From a virus (Duplodnaviria; Heunggongvirae; Uroviricota; Caudoviricetes): a stretch of DNA of 64,000 nucleotides. Location: IMG/VR virus record IMGVR_UViG_3300032167_000010. One strand, given 5' to 3'. A model generated the notes under the pieces. The model made no database searches and was not told the origin of the DNA. It saw nothing but the letters and a program-made list of their open reading frames with translations. How positions within the stretch are numbered: position 1 is the stretch's first letter; each line of letters starts with the position of its first letter. Positions 6,001 through 46,341 of the stretch are shown here, in pieces. The position numbers and the translations under genes are program-made.

Positions 6001-6809
6001 CAGAATCAGTACAACGTATTGGTAGAAGTGCTTTCCAAGGCTGTAATAAGTTAAAAACAGTACATATTCCGGCGAACGTACAAAATATAAGTGATGCAGC
6101 TTTTGCTGATTGCTTGAGATTGACAAGGTTCTCCGTAGATAGTGCTAATAAAAACTTTATTGGTAATGAAAATTATTTGGTAGATACTAAAAATCGTAAA
6201 TTTTTACAGGGTATTACTGGAGAAATTCCAGCAGACTACACTTTAAGTAGTTTAGGACAAAACTGTTTCTCAAACACTGGAATTGAGGCAGTTAATGTTC
6301 CAGAAGGTATTACTACTATTGGTTCAAATGCTTTTAGTCGTTGCTCTTATTTATGTGAGGTAACGTTACCAAGTACACTTACATCAATTGGTGCTACTTG
6401 CTTCAGCTGGTGTGGTAGTTTAGAGAGCATAACGTTGCCTGAGAGTTTAGAAGAACTGCCAACTTATGCATTTAATGAGTGCGCTTTGCGTGAAATTACA
6501 ATACCGACAGCGGTTGGAGTTGTTAGGGATAGAGCTTTTGGGTACATGCCAAGCTTACAAAAAGTAGTTTTCAATGTGGGACTGGATGGTGACGGTAATA
6601 TAAAAATACCACAAATTCACAAACAAGCATTTTTATCTTCTGGCACGGCGGCTAATCACGTAAAATTCTACGTGCCTTGGTCTAAAACTCAACACGAACA
6701 AAAATTCGAGGGTTTTGATAAAGAAGGTAATGCTTTAGATCCATTCTTTGGCGCTGTTGGTGTTACTTATGACGATTTTGTGTTTAATTACGTAGAGGAG
6801 GTAGAATAA
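3..6809 (+). CDS. Very large virion/tail-associated protein (5'-truncated): coiled coil, poly-Gly hinge, beta-rich domains, CotH-kinase-like segment, C-terminal BspA LRRs
   Basis: Frame is open from the window edge (first ATG at 90). Contains GGGGGGGGS, DNRAKN..WDYDND and LPSTLTSIG-type repeats. Confidence 0.75.
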   Translation: MRQEILEAATGLTSAIEALEKRFIGEDGEMGDGKESVVGSLQKQIAALETDTNSKFADVQAETNNISTEMQNLMSYTSDNFNPEVEGSFANTLIKNISSTNDALQSEINTNKGYIKSLQGDITSAHNQAASAQTAVLDIQASVTDLSKDLQSLSEETAGEFTEINEIIANNKSIAEADIAEVNKTIETLDQHITDTNKSIEVQANRIDTLIALPDGSTTADAELIDIRNGYSGEIYTSAGAAVRAVGNDIKALRDSLSQYIDTQAIDGLHYDLTGEIDQQRPYTLYLTANKEVIPESGVQIISGAGGGGGGGGSVSSLKISYITTSPVITTVNDTTKLLFTFSGTDSSGDIVQEASATWKVNNVVVAYGIVKDGGNEFDITKHLSVGTNKVFLLVTDDNGNTVTKTWTVEQKELLISSAFNDKITYASGEEIVFTYTPEGAVDKTAKFKLDGIELPSSTLTADISGIPRQYRIPAQEHGSHLLEVYLEAEINGSTITSNCITKDILVYNADSKLPIIGTSVHNFNIKQYSTVNILYTVYDPKSEMPIVEIEVDGVNVSTVEIKANPEYNNTPTGVYSYTGVEAGRHTIKIICVNQIKTVYVDVEKLDITIAPVTAGLAFDFNPVGRNNNDSANRLWSYNDVHMTVSDNFDWINGGYRVEDGEPCFCIKAGSTATIDYKLFADDAKKYGKEFKLIFKTKNVANPDSIFLSCIDNTTDRDHIGIEMGVHNANIYGQNGSLELAYSEEDLIEFEFNISSDTEKVPMVMGYEDGVPSRPMVYDNNYNFKQNTAKDITIGSPDCDVYIYRFKVYNNSLTNIDILNNFIADARTAEEMVDRYNRNQIYDENHKLTPEVLAEKCPWLRVYKLSAPHFTNNKSDKVSNTKIQQIYKNGDPVKDNWVCYNAQHSGQGTSSNDYGAAGRNLDFIMNKSNSYFEFSDGSTARTITLTRTSVPVAYLNAKVNIASSNNLTNAMLANRYNKFNPYRRPFIAREGVNTDFIKDTMEFHNCVIFIQETDPDLSTHREFADTDWHFYAIGNIGDSKKTDNTRLTDPNDRYECCVEIMDVELPLSDFPVDTMIDAMGYKEDETTHERTYIWAKDENLDKLYELEGEFVKTEDTEVIRNKAYYTYNAATDTYKCVAYPSKNNLINLYELRGDYVLTTDIKVDLTKKYYIDILEHDDFSEDFTYGWRYISDDEDPDVVNTCKQAWIDFYRFVTTSTDEEFKANLKNYFVIDSALYYYLFTLRYCMVDNRAKNTFWHYGKAADGTHKWDLCWDYDNDTSLGLNNYGKQVYRYGLEDTDVDAVGEEVFREMDSTFFCKVRDCFRDELKTMYNTLESQNAWHAESFIKACDDWQNEFPEELWRLDIDRKYIRTYTGSFINGKGAAQFLVNMSNGKMKYHRRQWERSQEQYMASKYQTSTAGEDSSVLRCSVPTGDLAVQPNYRLKLTPYAYIYLNVKYGTNSPIQVRAVPNEEFEIPFTGTGADIIGIYSSSLIQDFGDLSTCYATTADTAKASRIRKLTLGNDTAGYINPGFTTLTTGANPLLEELNVENVTGLTRSLDLRELINLKRVYAFGTNIPGALFADGGKLEYVELPNVTTINLRNLSYLGNDGLVLESYDDVVDLVVENCPLINKIDLLDNCVNLKRLRLTDINFGDIEYDDFAEKFFGLGGLSSSGADLANAYISGTCHINSLTGEQYSNLNTRYPELDIGFGTLTSKVTFKYLNSDGSVGQELHTATVVSNNSILNSCPDPELTVPTWPENDAFKYVHVGWSSTKQISKGVNDHEEDYKEYLEEDALLNIAGDRVLYPVFKADRKSYTVWFTNPTASEGTSDYLLKTFTIPYGSNVNYYTPYNNLDEYLAAGMPVPSKLDSNDPSLYAFTGWYPESTVILGETTYKAQFTFLDEKWYELKNSELFNPKYSISAGTMTFDAYMNTNNIAVKVPDTISSNGVDCKVVGLGFYYNTTDIKYEHTDLEFVRLPSHLKEIFANGFKNCSSLAEIELPESVQRIGRSAFQGCNKLKTVHIPANVQNISDAAFADCLRLTRFSVDSANKNFIGNENYLVDTKNRKFLQGITGEIPADYTLSSLGQNCFSNTGIEAVNVPEGITTIGSNAFSRCSYLCEVTLPSTLTSIGATCFSWCGSLESITLPESLEELPTYAFNECALREITIPTAVGVVRDRAFGYMPSLQKVVFNVGLDGDGNIKIPQIHKQAFLSSGTAANHVKFYVPWSKTQHEQKFEGFDKEGNALDPFFGAVGVTYDDFVFNYVEEVE

Positions 6810-30353: not shown

Positions 30354-30363
30354 TGTATAATAT
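30354..30363 (+). promoter_or_regulatory. TGTATWATAT extended -10-like promoter (representative copy)
   Basis: Copies at 29334, 30354, 32594, 35809, 38921, 41377, 43434, 44879 and 61420, all intergenic and upstream of non-structural units. Confidence 0.65.
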
Positions 30364-32608: not shown

Positions 32609-32722
32609 AGAGCCAATGCTTATTTCTTTAGCCTTTTAAGCCGTGTGTCGTAGGTTCGAATCCTACCGTCAGCCTTCGGGTGGCGTAGCTCAGCGGTAGA
32701 GCAACGTAAATATAGCTTGGCC
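32609..32722 (+). ncRNA. Bulged-helix ncRNA copy 2 carrying a circularly permuted tRNA-Lys(UUU)-like domain (YrlA-like)
   Basis: Order is anticodon loop CTTTTAA, T arm, acceptor 3' strand, TTCG loop, acceptor 5' strand, D arm; closed by GCCAA/TTGGC. Confidence 0.85.
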
Positions 32723-35825: not shown

Positions 35826-35959
35826 GCGCCTGTAGCTCAGTTGGCAGAGCACGTGACTTGTTTGAGTAGCATAAGTAATGCGATATTATGTGAGTTCAAA
35901 TCTTACCTCAAGCACCATTAATCACGGTGTCCCGAGTTCGAATCTCGGCAGGCGCACCA
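35826..35959 (+). tRNA. trnK: tRNA-Lys(TTT) interrupted at 34/35 by a 58-nt mini-tRNA (35860-35917)
   Basis: Exons of 34 nt and 42 nt give 76 nt with CGTGA-CTT|TTAA-TCACG. Confidence 0.9.
35860..35917 (+). ncRNA. Anticodon-arm-less mini-tRNA nested in tRNA-Lys
   Basis: GTTTGAG/CTCAAGC stem, D arm GCAT-AAGTA-ATGC, T arm GTGAG-TTCAAAT-CTTAC, ACCA. Confidence 0.88.
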
Positions 35960-36399: not shown

Positions 36400-36549
36400 G
36401 GGCAGTTATAATGTGGTGAAGAATGGTCTGCCGAAGCAAAATCCGTAGGGTCATGAGGTATGGATACTCCTCGATTAATATAAGTATGCAAATTGAAAAT
36501 AGGCCTTAAGTAAATAAGTGAAAATATTAATAAAATTATCCATATTTTT

Positions 36550-36625
36550 GCAGGATTAGCTCAGTTGGGAGAGCAATTGTCTTACAAGCAATGGGTCGGC
36601 GGTTCGAGCCCGTCATTCTGTACCA
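36550..36625 (+). tRNA. trnV: tRNA-Val(TAC)
   Basis: ATTGT-CTTACAA-GCAAT, ACCA. Confidence 0.92.
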
Positions 36626-36883
36626 GTTGAGTTCGGATATAGCGAACTTTTGAAATGCTTAAGCATACTAGTAAATACTTAATCAAAGTAAATTTAGTAG
36701 TGGAATGTAATGTGGAAAAAGCTTTGACTCCGATACCATTTCACTCAACACCATTCAGTTCTGGGGTAAGTTAGTTGAACCGGTTATACTAACAACCATA
36801 TGTGCGTAGAATATGGATTTAACCTGACAGGCGGATATTCCTGTAGATGCAGAAAGGCTGCGAACTGAGACCATTTTAATTAC

Positions 36884-37000
36884 ATGTCAGTGGCGGAAAA
36901 ATCCTGCAGACCAAAGACAGTAGGTGGATAGACGTAACCCTGTTAAGGGTGAAGAGTCTTGCAAGCTCTTATAAAGGTTCAAATCCTTTCTGACATACCA
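36884..37000 (+). ncRNA. Atypical type-II tRNA-like RNA with D-loop insertion and 6-nt anticodon loop
   Basis: ATGTCAG/CTGACAT-ACCA, T arm AAAGG-TTCAAAT-CCTTT, ACCC-TGTTAA-GGGT. Confidence 0.7.
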
Positions 37001-37116
37001 AGGGCAAACAGTTATCACTTTCATTAGAGCCCTAGATAAAAGTTCCTGAAAGTGAAAGTTTTTCTTTTTCACAGTAGCTTGGTTTTATGATGACTTAAAA
37101 AACACAAACTATGATT

Positions 37117-37192
37117 CTAGGTATAGCACAATTGGATGTGCATCGCCCTTCTAAGGCGACGGTTGTAGGTTCGAGCCCTGCTACCTAGACCA
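37117..37192 (+). tRNA. trnR: tRNA-Arg(TCT)
   Basis: TCGCC-CTTCTAA-GGCGA, ACCA. Confidence 0.93.
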
Positions 37193-37199
37193 AAAGTAT

Positions 37200-37277
37200 G
37201 CCTCGGTAGCTCAGTTCGGTAAGAGCACTAGACTGAAAATCTAGACGTCGGCGGTTCAAATCCACCCTGAGGCACCA
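37200..37277 (+). tRNA. trnF: tRNA-Phe(GAA)
   Basis: CTAGA-CTGAAAA-TCTAG, ACCA. Confidence 0.93.
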
Positions 37278-37411
37278 AAAGCGGAAAAAGTACAATTCTG
37301 CTCAGCAACGCGTAGTATAGGTAGAGGTAGAATTACGCCAAAACGAGGTCATATGCCGTGGAGGAAACCCTGACACCGACGAGACTGGTTCATCAGGAGC
37401 GTTGTGAATAT

Positions 37412-37484
37412 GCCAGATGTGCTAGGAACACAAGGAGGTCTCATACACCACCTGTGCTTGGAGCGTAACCAAGATCTGGTACCA
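37412..37484 (+). ncRNA. Degenerate CAT-anticodon tRNA-like RNA
   Basis: GCCAGAT/ATCTGGT-ACCA, CTCATAC loop, non-canonical T loop AGCGTAA. Confidence 0.6.
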
Positions 37485-37570
37485 ATAGTAAATATAGGTT
37501 CGAGCCCTGTATTGGGGAGCCTTAAGTGGAACAACTCCCCGATTAGTTTAATTGGACTAAAACTTACTAT
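37485..37570 (+). ncRNA. Second circularly permuted tRNA-like RNA, open at the anticodon end
   Basis: ATAGTAA/TTACTAT closing stem, T arm, ATTGGGGAG/CTCCCCGAT stem, D arm. Confidence 0.75.
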
Positions 37571-38012
37571 GCACGAAACCGCGGGAAGTGTGGTAACCGG
37601 CGGTCTAAAAATGAAGGATCACCAAACCTTATACATGACAACGCTGAAATCGCCTCTATGATGTATAAGTGAGTCCAATAGCCTTGACAGTAAGACTGGG
37701 GTTGAATGTTACCTTACATATTACGATATGGTAAGATACTAAAAGCTGTCTGAAATACCTCTGGCAAGAGATTTAGTAGTGACTCTATAACATAAACTAC
37801 TTGGTAGCGTATGTGCGGAAGGCAAGGCAGTGTTTTTACATTGTTCCTTGGATACTATAAGAAATTATAGTAGTACAGGCTATGTTGAATAGTCTTAAAT
37901 AAAAACCCGTGAATGTCAGTAAATGTCCCGAAAGTATCAACAGAGAAGCTGACTAATCTCGTTCTAGGTGTAGGATAGGGACGAGCAGGTTTACGGGGCT
38001 CCTGCTCAATAT

Positions 38013-38087
38013 GGGGAATGTAGTGTAAAGGTAGCACCTCAGTTTGTGGCACTGATAGTTAGAGTTCGATCCTCTACGTTCCCACCA
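38013..38087 (+). tRNA. trnH: tRNA-His(GTG) with encoded G-1 and A73
   Basis: TCAGT-TTGTGGC-ACTGA; 3' end CGTTCCC-A-CCA. Confidence 0.9.
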
Positions 38088-38104
38088 GTTAAGTTATATT
38101 ATAT

Positions 38105-38190
38105 GGGTAGGTAGCGAAGAGGTTAAACGCTGCGGGCTGTAAACCCGCCCCTGTTTAGGTTCGCTGGTTCGAATCCAGCCCTGCCCACCA
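38105..38190 (+). tRNA. trnY: tRNA-Tyr(GTA)
   Basis: GCGGG-CTGTAAA-CCCGC, ACCA. Confidence 0.93.
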
Positions 38191-38387
38191 ATACGACTAG
38201 ACTCATAAGTCGTTCAATAGAGTACAAAGCCTTGGTTGCGGGAGTCGCAATTACACAAGGATGCAGAGACTCGCCCTTATAAAGGGAATTAAATAAATTG
38301 AGTATGGGCATGATTAGGGACTTTCCACCCATGAAGATAAAGCGGAAAGGATAACGTTATGACGCCTGGGAATAGACCAGGATGCAT

Positions 38388-44874: not shown

Positions 44875-44919
44875 ATATTGTATTATATAATATAAAAATA
44901 ATTATTGAGGTTAAATAAT

Positions 44920-46341
44920 ATGAGTTATTATGCTATTGTAACTGCTTTAAAAAACGTGCGTAAGCACCCTAATGCAGACAGACTTCAACTTGCCTCAGTA
45001 TTTGGTAATACTATTTGTGTTGACTTAACTTATACTGATGGCCAACTTGGTGTATATTTTCCAACAGGTGGACAGCTTTCAGTAGCTTTTGCTGAGGCAA
45101 ATAACTTGCTTCGTAAAAAAGATGCCGAAGGAAATAATATCGGTGGATATATGGACCCAGATAAAAGAAATGTAGCGGCTATTAAACTAAGAGGTGAGAA
45201 GTCTGATGGGCTTTTCCTTCCTTTGAATAGTCTCGAAACTTTTGGTGATATTTCTACTTTGAAGGCTGGCGACCGAATCGACGTGTTTAATGGTACAGAG
45301 ATTTGCACCAAGTACATACCTAAAATTAATATTAGACGTGGCAGTTTTTCTGAAGGAAATCGTACTAGAAAAACTAAGGCGCCTATTGCTCCTTTATTTG
45401 CAGAACACGCAGACACTGAACAGCTTGCCTATAACTTGGGTATGTTTAAGGTCGGTGATGAATTAGAGTTTACTCTAAAAATGCACGGGACTTCTCAACG
45501 TACCGGTCATCTTAAAGTTTTGACTGGTTATAAGAGAACTTTTTTTGATAAGCTTTTTAAAAGACCTGGCACACCTATTTATGATTGGGGCTATGTTTCT
45601 GGTACCCGTCGTGTAGTTCTTGATACTTTTGATGGTGGTTTCTACGGCTCAAATGAATTCAGAGAACAACATCATAATGCTTTTGTTGGAAAGCTTTGGA
45701 AGGGTGAAACTGTTTATTACGAAGTAGTTGGTTTTACTCATACTGGTGCGCCTATTATGGGTAATGGTAATAACGAAAAACTTGGTAAAGACTTTGTAAA
45801 GCAGTATGGTAAAGAAACTGTATTTAGCTACGGCTGTAATCCAACTGGTGAGTGCATTATGTGTGGTGAAGATGAACTTAGCGCTTTTAAAGTTCCAGTT
45901 GATGTTCCAATATCAGATACTTATGTTTACCGTATGACAATGACTAATGAAGATGGTGAAATTGTTGAGTATACGCCAGACTTTATAAGGTATCGTTGTG
46001 AACAAATGGGCGTTAAATGTGTTCCTGTTTTCGGTAAAGCTACAATTAGTGAAGATAGACTACATTTTGTAACACAAGACGGTTATGACCATGACTATTT
46101 AATTGGTGACGGTACTATTGGTGATATGGTAGTAAAGTGTGCTGAAGACTTTTATGCTGGACCTGACCCTGTGGGTAAGACACACACTAGAGAAGGTGTT
46201 GTTGTTCGTATTACTAATAGACCTAAATTCGCAGCAGTAAAACATAAAAACTTTGAATTTAAGGTCTTAGAAGGTATCATTTCTGAAAAGCTTACAGAAT
46301 CAACCACAGAAATAGCAGAAGATGTTCTTGCGGAAATGTAA
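44920..46341 (+). CDS. ATP-dependent RNA ligase (DRB0094/Rnl2-like) with N-terminal OB-fold tRNA-binding-like domain
   Basis: N-terminal HPNADRL..IKLRGEKSDG; nucleotidyltransferase motifs TLKMHGTS, YYEVVG, REGVVVR, KHKNFEF. Confidence 0.85.
   Translation: MSYYAIVTALKNVRKHPNADRLQLASVFGNTICVDLTYTDGQLGVYFPTGGQLSVAFAEANNLLRKKDAEGNNIGGYMDPDKRNVAAIKLRGEKSDGLFLPLNSLETFGDISTLKAGDRIDVFNGTEICTKYIPKINIRRGSFSEGNRTRKTKAPIAPLFAEHADTEQLAYNLGMFKVGDELEFTLKMHGTSQRTGHLKVLTGYKRTFFDKLFKRPGTPIYDWGYVSGTRRVVLDTFDGGFYGSNEFREQHHNAFVGKLWKGETVYYEVVGFTHTGAPIMGNGNNEKLGKDFVKQYGKETVFSYGCNPTGECIMCGEDELSAFKVPVDVPISDTYVYRMTMTNEDGEIVEYTPDFIRYRCEQMGVKCVPVFGKATISEDRLHFVTQDGYDHDYLIGDGTIGDMVVKCAEDFYAGPDPVGKTHTREGVVVRITNRPKFAAVKHKNFEFKVLEGIISEKLTESTTEIAEDVLAEM

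Follow-up and report, generated by a model that had tools for sequence, protein, structure and literature searches.

The stretch of DNA analysed here, called the window throughout, is 64,000 nt of DNA from the virus record IMGVR_UViG_3300032167_000010. It is part of a large phage genome, with nearly all open reading frames (ORFs) on the + strand and a GC content of 31-41%. A transfer RNA (tRNA) array at 32.7-41.3 kb, downstream of lysis and tail-type genes, holds 25 tRNA genes as called by ARAGORN in the window. Between tRNA-Phe (37200-37277) and tRNA-His (38014-38087) of this array lies an 86-nt element at 37485-37570. The initial annotation had described it as a permuted tRNA-like RNA that lacks a Y-like handle, and the permutation test and the covarying homologues reported below support this description.

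Structure of the element

The element was read base by base on the + strand. It begins with ATAGTAA (37485-37491), which stands in the position of the 3′ strand of an anticodon stem and pairs with TTACTAT (37564-37570), in the position of the 5′ strand, to form the outer stem. A two-base variable region, AT (AU in the RNA; 37492-37493), places a U at the Y48 position and leads into the T arm ATAGG-TTCGAGC-CCTGT (37494-37510), which has the canonical T-loop nucleotides U54 U55 C56 R57 A58. The acceptor follows as a 9-bp helix between ATTGGGGAG (37511-37519) and CTCCCCGAT (37535-37543), closed by the 15-nt capping loop CCTTAAGTGGAACAA (37520-37534). A TA (UA) linker at 37544-37545, the equivalent of tRNA U8-A9, connects it to the D arm GTTT-AATTGGACTA-AAAC (37546-37563), in which equivalents of A14, G18-G19 and A21 are present. 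The linkers between the helices measure 2, 0, 2 and 0 nt in order. The tRNA core nucleotides are complete (U8-A9, A14, G18-G19, A21, T-loop UUCGA and U at Y48). The termini pair flush, and there is neither an anticodon loop nor a free CCA; the bases GCAC after 37570 add no pairs to the outer helix.

This reading agrees with the initial annotation on the parts and their order, on the 7-bp end stem at the anticodon position, on the 9-bp looped acceptor and on a start directly after the CCA of the tRNA-like RNA at 37412. The D arm had been placed correctly but with AAAAC as its 3′ strand; the stem is GTTT/AAAC with the 10-nt loop AATTGGACTA. The lack of a handle was borne out as well, as the flanks of the window copy and of its homologues neither lengthen the outer stem nor carry GNCGAA.

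Permutation test

In its native order the element was not called as a tRNA by ARAGORN or by the Rfam tRNA model (RF00005), as had been forecast for tRNA scanners. The permuted construct consisted of the 5′ half, a dummy 7-nt loop, the 3′ half and CCA. This construct was called as a tRNA by ARAGORN at default settings with 5, 6 or 7 outer pairs kept, and a direct join of the element ends with no added loop gave no tRNA call at the same settings. As a control, the identical fixed-geometry permutation was applied at each position of both strands, giving 127,828 constructs. A call of the expected geometry was obtained at +37485 only. The 7 other calls were a tandem-tRNA junction or reverse strands of real tRNAs. 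The in-silico permutation that had been proposed as a check therefore came out positive, and the tRNA-like arrangement of the element is far beyond chance.

Homologues and covariation

Two covariance models were used, R1 built from a single sequence and R2 from four sequences, the window copy included. They were searched against loci fetched via a neighbouring 660-aa protein and via degenerate DNA patterns. The window copy scores 85.4 bits with R2, a high score being expected for one of the source sequences of the model. The homologue search, also suggested beforehand, yielded four strong, covarying homologues (64-81 bits with R2). L009:6517-6592 (80.5 bits) comes from a close relative of the window phage (80-93% protein identity) and is located directly after the CCA of tRNA-Trp. 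L027:3372-3448 (74.3 bits) follows a class-I-shaped tRNA whose anticodon is UAG and precedes tRNA-Ile(tat). L050:6315-6388 (− strand, 73.9 bits) stands directly after the CCA of an odd tRNA-like RNA and 4 nt before tRNA-Ala, and L135:8640-8722 (− strand, 63.6 bits) belongs to a relative of L027. A weaker candidate, L362:2464-2533 (45.8 bits), is found 3-4 nt after tRNA-Phe. Whole-record searches returned exactly one strong copy each in L027, L050 and L135.

Two further hits were rejected. L297 (39.5 bits) looks like a duplicated-tRNA remnant (CCACCAC-ACCA-spacer-GTGGTGG), and the hit in L345 is a duplicated-tRNA or tandem-tRNA junction. At 35 bits or less, all the hits inspected were junctions of two ordinary tRNA genes. 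The handle-less family is distinguished by an R2 score above 60 bits, an AU variable region, a GUUU/AAAC D stem and a start 0-4 nt downstream of the 3′ end of a tRNA, and the window copy has all of these features.

In arrays with encoded CCA (window, L009 and L050) the element starts 0 nt after the upstream CCA, and in CCA-less arrays (L027, L135 and L362) it starts 2-4 nt after the discriminator. The next tRNA begins 4-7 nt after the element in L027, L135 and L050. A common upstream partner was rejected, since the upstream RNAs are mutually unrelated. No protein in common with the 64-kb window was detected in L027, L050 or L135, indicating that unrelated phages have retained the RNA. None of the tRNAs in these arrays closely matches the elements, which therefore form an old lineage of their own and are not recent pseudogenes; derivation from a particular isoacceptor was rejected on the same ground.

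When the 421-nt region, the L027 element and the L050 element were searched by blastn against 50,697 GenBank phages, the only useful result was a 56-nt match in phage Alone3 (see below). The window copy had no blastn match in GenBank phages, and an exact 23-mer had none in IMG/VR. Degenerate-pattern scans of IMG/VR and GTDB genomes returned mainly tandem-tRNA junctions, which were removed by a descriptor script and the models.

In the five-sequence alignment, 94.1% of the pair cells are paired and compensatory changes occur in 12 of the 24 pairs. The outer stem accounts for 6 of these (of its 7 pairs), the capped helix for 5 (of 8 modelled) and the T stem for 1. In 500 shuffles the real alignment was never equalled, and slid-partner controls were 32-49% paired. 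The T-arm stem cells are 96% paired among the homologues. The D stem GUUU/AAAC is kept in 4 of 5 sequences and altered by a one-base insertion in L009. The AU, the UA and the greater part of the T arm are constant throughout the alignment. The nucleotides of tertiary contacts are invariant (T-loop UUCRA, D-loop GG, the UA linker and the last variable-loop pyrimidine). The capping loop ranges from 4 to 15 nt with variable sequence, and the acceptor has at least 7 pairs in all members. L009, L027, L135 and L050 share ACTGTC/GGCGGT with G·U at 3:70, and the loop of L135 starts with TCCA; the 3:70 pair is C3-G70 in the window and G3-C70 in L362. Judged by this comparison of sequences, the element is a real conserved RNA with a permuted tRNA shape.

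Genomic setting and other tRNA-like RNAs

The 5′ end of the element is the next base after ...ATCTGGTACCA of an odd tRNA-like RNA at 37412-37484 (+ strand), so that the spacer is 0 nt, where tRNA-tRNA spacers in the window are usually 7-17 nt. This RNA has a 7-bp acceptor, GCCAGAT/ATCTGGT, a T arm CTTGG-AGCGTAA-CCAAG with a non-canonical T loop, and then ACCA. A normal D arm is absent, and a hairpin carries the anticodon-like loop CTCATAC. It was called by neither ARAGORN nor Rfam. In L050 a non-canonical tRNA-like RNA (6389-6466, − strand; GGTCTAG...CTAGACCGCCA, T loop TTTGACT) is located directly before the element; the upstream RNAs of L050 and the window are alike in arrangement and dissimilar in sequence. 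The RNA preceding the element at L027:3297-3370 and L135:8726-8799 (− strand) is a 74-nt tRNA with anticodon UAG, called tRNA-Leu, without a long variable arm.

An extended −10-like promoter motif, TGTATAATATA, occurs in five exact + strand copies, at 30354, 32594, 35809, 38921 and 61420, and precedes transcription units for non-coding RNAs and tRNAs. If one mismatch is tolerated, the count rises to 16, where 6.7 would be expected. No terminator was predicted in 36400-38200. An 85-aa ORF at 37404-37661, which overlaps the element, was taken as spurious, as it has no Pfam or PHROG match. An ATP-dependent RNA ligase (44905-46341), a Thg1-like enzyme and a metallophosphoesterase are encoded at 44.9-48.4 kb.

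Other unusual RNAs were seen in the array. At 35828-35955 of the window, the anticodon loop of a tRNA-Lys(UUU)-like gene (CTT|TTAA) is split by a 58-nt mini tRNA-like RNA ending in ACCA. A homologous insert at the same 34/35 position is found in a tRNA-Leu(UAA)-like gene (CTT|AAAA) at L004:12625-12780. At window 36885-36999 a long insertion interrupts a tRNA-like RNA, some 115 nt in all (ATGTCAG...CTGACATACCA; T arm AAAGG-TTCAAAT-CCTTT), which was not called by ARAGORN.

Elsewhere, a handle-less permuted tRNA-like element of unrelated sequence was found at L286:8943-9022 (− strand). It does not adjoin a tRNA, and its parts are TCTTA, ATTGAT, GTAGG-TTCGAGT-CCTAC, the capped CCTTGGC/GCCGAGG, TG, GTGC-AATTGGATGAC-GCAT and TAAGA. 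This element suggests that the handle-less permuted class is broader than the family defined here. At L028:3898-3969 (− strand), on a contig without tRNA calls, a T arm identical to that of the window element (AAATATAGGTTCGAGCCCTGTAT) is followed by a capped hairpin and no D arm. This RNA may be a transfer-messenger RNA (tmRNA)-like or other tRNA-derived RNA.

Proposed role and alternative explanations

To our knowledge, YrlA RNAs are the only 'capped, permuted' tRNA mimics described. They are thought to tether Ro60 to an elbow-binding factor. Lacking both an anticodon loop and a free 3′ acceptor end, the element would as made neither decode nor be charged, and it is for this reason taken as a stand-alone tRNA mimic. 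We lean slightly towards the view that it is such a non-decoding mimic, with the wiring of the YrlA effector domain, which binds a factor that recognises the tRNA body; this function is inferred. The element would be co-transcribed with the tRNAs, most likely from 35809, because a copy of TGTATAATATA stands there and the stretch 36400-38200 contains no predicted terminator. The ends of the element fall at tRNA processing sites, and it would be excised by the enzymes that trim the neighbouring tRNAs. The RNA would then take an L-shape through a T-loop/D-loop elbow and occupy a factor reading the elbow and the conserved T and D stems, acting as a decoy, competitor or tether. Ribonuclease P (RNase P) may also open the capped acceptor, as in Mycobacterium smegmatis YrlA.

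Several observations weigh against this reading. The covariation rests on five sequences, in an alignment fitted to the model. No strong copy was found in L003 or L004, near-complete relatives of the window phage, which have only the handle-bearing type of permuted RNA described below, so the element is dispensable in that lineage. The Rfam YrlA model (RF02553) had no hit on the window copy at E ≤ 10, and on L050 it gave 13.7 bits (E = 1.6), below its gathering threshold of 69 bits. The D stem of the element is GUUU/AAAC against GCUC/GAGC in YrlA, and the T stems differ too; the partner therefore need not be that of YrlA. The variable region is 2 nt against 4-5 nt in YrlA (4 nt in the RF02553 consensus), which is also shorter than in tRNA and may strain the core. 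The minimum free energy (MFE) fold from ViennaRNA has −25.9 kcal/mol against −17.7 kcal/mol for the cloverleaf-type fold. The MFE fold retains the outer stem and the capped helix, but its T loop pairs with the D loop. Energy folding of tRNAs has a known weakness, and this preference was for that reason judged by comparative data. In the two MFE-specific helices 70% of the cells are paired and compensatory changes are absent; these helices are not conserved across the homologues, and the comparative data support the cloverleaf-type fold. The fold was rejected on these grounds, and dominance of an alternative fold, which the initial annotation had named as its refutation, is therefore not supported.

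The same features can be read in other ways. If RNase P cut the capping loop at the 5′ side of a 7-bp acceptor, and the other end were trimmed and received CCA, an anticodon-less two-piece RNA would result, possibly chargeable (with alanine where 3:70 is G·U). M. smegmatis YrlA, whose capped acceptor is 7 bp, provides a precedent, being cut by RNase P and gaining CCA in vivo (Chen et al. 2014, PMC4201824; 10.1101/312249). The loops are free in length and sequence, as for a removable spacer, beside at least 7 acceptor pairs in every member, and the G·U pair of L009, L027, L135 and L050 and the TCCA of the L135 loop also fit. However, 3:70 is C-G in the window copy and G-C in L362, and the discriminator and the −1 base are not conserved. 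Positions −1/73 are paired in the window, L027 and L050, making helices of 8-9 bp, and L050 has a tetraloop; these would be poor RNase P substrates. We know of no use for an anticodon-less charged RNA in a phage, and a two-piece product is in our judgement unlikely. The element could instead serve its upstream neighbour, recruiting RNase P or a nuclease that reads tRNA shape to its own 5′ end and so leaving the upstream RNA with a mature CCA-OH, as mascRNA does for MALAT1. The 0-nt distance from the encoded CCA in the window, L009 and L050, against the usual 7-17 nt in the window, favours such a signal. At 6-7 bp the outer stem is as long as an acceptor stem and, with no spacer between them, it makes up together with the D arm a helix of about 11 bp measured from the elbow. 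The YrlA crystal-structure preprint (10.1101/312249) cites tRNA-like 3′-end formation by RNase P as established for long non-coding RNAs. By sequence homology, however, the T arm stacks on the capped helix and not on the outer stem, which puts the expected RNase P cut in the loop. The gaps of 2-4 nt in L027, L135 and L362 do not suit a cut at the junction either, the upstream partners are unrelated (tRNA-Trp, the class-I-shaped tRNA with UAG and two odd tRNA-like RNAs), and strict conservation of the D and T stems would be superfluous for a mere cleavage signal. We regard this role as less likely again.

A functionless remnant, in which the junction of a tandem tRNA duplication survived deletion of the outer halves, would have the observed order automatically, as tandem copies of one tRNA do in L181 and probably in L297, and the absence of the element from the close relatives L003 and L004 would agree with it. 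It is nevertheless very improbable in view of five homologues that include unrelated phages, compensatory changes in 12 of 24 pairs and the invariant tertiary nucleotides; moreover, no member resembles a tRNA of its own array, and there is one copy per record. Least probable of all is a true permuted tRNA gene, from which a decoding tRNA would arise, as in Cyanidioschyzon merolae, once the phage RNA ligase (44905-46341) had circularised the element and the acceptor had then been opened. The 3′ half does precede the 5′ half, the phage encodes the ATP-dependent RNA ligase together with the Thg1-like enzyme and the phosphoesterase, other tRNAs of the array appear split by tRNA-like inserts, and no tRNA-Cys or tRNA-Lys was called by ARAGORN in the window. 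But the element has no anticodon-loop nucleotides and no bulge-helix-bulge motif, and its ends are flush in all members, so that joining would leave a loop of 0-4 nt. Anticodon loops built from the flanks (e.g. AU-GCA-AU, AU-CCA-AU) were rejected, as no consistent 7-nt loop is found across five members.

The conservation of the element without a handle argues for an activity of the tRNA-like module itself, and the element offers a small, handle-free bait for the long-sought elbow-binding partner. The YrlA-type module occurs here alone, without the Ro60 handle, in unrelated giant phages and within tRNA arrays. The element is a further indication that unannotated structured RNAs, missed by standard tRNA finders, are encoded in the 'non-tRNA' spacers of phage tRNA arrays. 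A wider proposal, to which we give only a modest chance, is that an independent class of capped tRNA bodies without anticodons exists in large phages, where, processed by the host tRNA machinery, they would serve as weapons or regulators in tRNA conflict. These RNAs might be decoys for a host factor that recognises the elbow or body (a defence nuclease, a modification enzyme or RNase P) or, with the cap opened, two-piece chargeable RNAs that divert an aminoacyl-tRNA synthetase.

Comparison with known systems

Like mascRNA, the element is a tRNA-shaped RNA directly after the 3′ end of another RNA. mascRNA has the normal tRNA order and is eukaryotic, whereas the T arm of the element stacks on the capped helix and not on the abutting end. 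In two-piece tmRNA genes the order is T arm, acceptor 3′ strand, spacer and acceptor 5′ strand, with G3·U70, a stemless, reduced D loop and a downstream reading frame for the tag. The element shares the order of parts, and four homologues share G3·U70; it differs in its full D arm and in having no mRNA-like domain or tag frame, and the window copy has C3-G70. ARAGORN found no tmRNA in the window. In the permuted tRNA genes of C. merolae and other algae the 3′ half comes first and a spacer joins the acceptor strands; circularisation depends on a bulge-helix-bulge motif, and the product is a decoding tRNA with a complete anticodon loop. The order of the halves and the acceptor spacer are alike in the element, which lacks both the anticodon loop and the motif.

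The handle-bearing permuted RNAs of the same phage group, located at 32609-32722 in the window and beside the gene for the 660-aa protein in L001-L023, likewise have T arm, capped acceptor, UA and D arm within a 5-bp stem, and R1 scores them at 15-32 bits. Their conserved outer handle (GCCAAT-GCT...AGC-TTGGC) and their separate TGTATAATATA promoter have no counterpart in the element. Their variable region of 4-5 nt, their D stem (GCUC/GAGC or GCC/GGC) and their constant position beside the 660-aa gene also set them apart. L004 (12083-12490) and L005 contain three tandem copies of the handle-bearing type. Between these copies the bodies differ, with covariation, and the handle GAGCCAATGCT...AGCTTGGCC stays conserved; the first two copies follow a TATAAT-type promoter.

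YrlA is found in phages and adjoins tRNA genes in some genomes (PMC4201824; 10.1101/312249). The conserved parts of YrlA are the stems and loops of its D and T arms, the UA linker and the pyrimidine that ends the variable loop, whereas variation is seen in its acceptor, in the stem at the anticodon position and in the variable loop (Chen et al. 2014, PMC4201824; 10.1101/312249). The phage family shows the same pattern of conserved and variable parts. The order of stem, variable region, T arm, capped acceptor, UA, D arm and stem is common to both, as are the T-loop UUCGA, the D-loop GG, the UA linker and the pyrimidine that ends the variable region.

The 56-nt blastn match of L050 lies beside a 'Ro-like RNA binding protein' gene in Streptomyces phage Alone3, where weak Rfam YrlA matches are also found. 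In the same phage (L067, OR725492.1 10920-11023) a second YrlA-like module, with a T arm, a capped acceptor TGCGTCCA/TGGGCGTA and a D arm, overlaps an RNA annotated as tRNA-Ser(gct), which lies upstream of the Ro-like gene. This annotated tRNA may be a Y RNA instead.

The Ro60-binding module of YrlA, with its long terminal stem and GNCGAA(N)G helix, is not part of the element, whose outer helix stops at 6-7 bp; GNCGAA was not found within 60 nt of the six members. By Pfam, no TROVE domain was detected in 21 window ORFs (19 at 20.0-32.5 kb and 41.6-49.6 kb, and 2 small ones within the array) or in the records of L003, L004, L027, L050, L135, L286, L297 and L362, which are mostly fragments. The element also differs from YrlA in lying inside a tRNA operon, flush with a tRNA 3′ end. 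By the Ro60 module, the TROVE neighbour and the Rfam score the element is not a member of YrlA; it is a distinct handle-less relative. The tRNA-like module itself is already known from YrlA, and what is new here is its occurrence as an independent RNA in phage tRNA operons.
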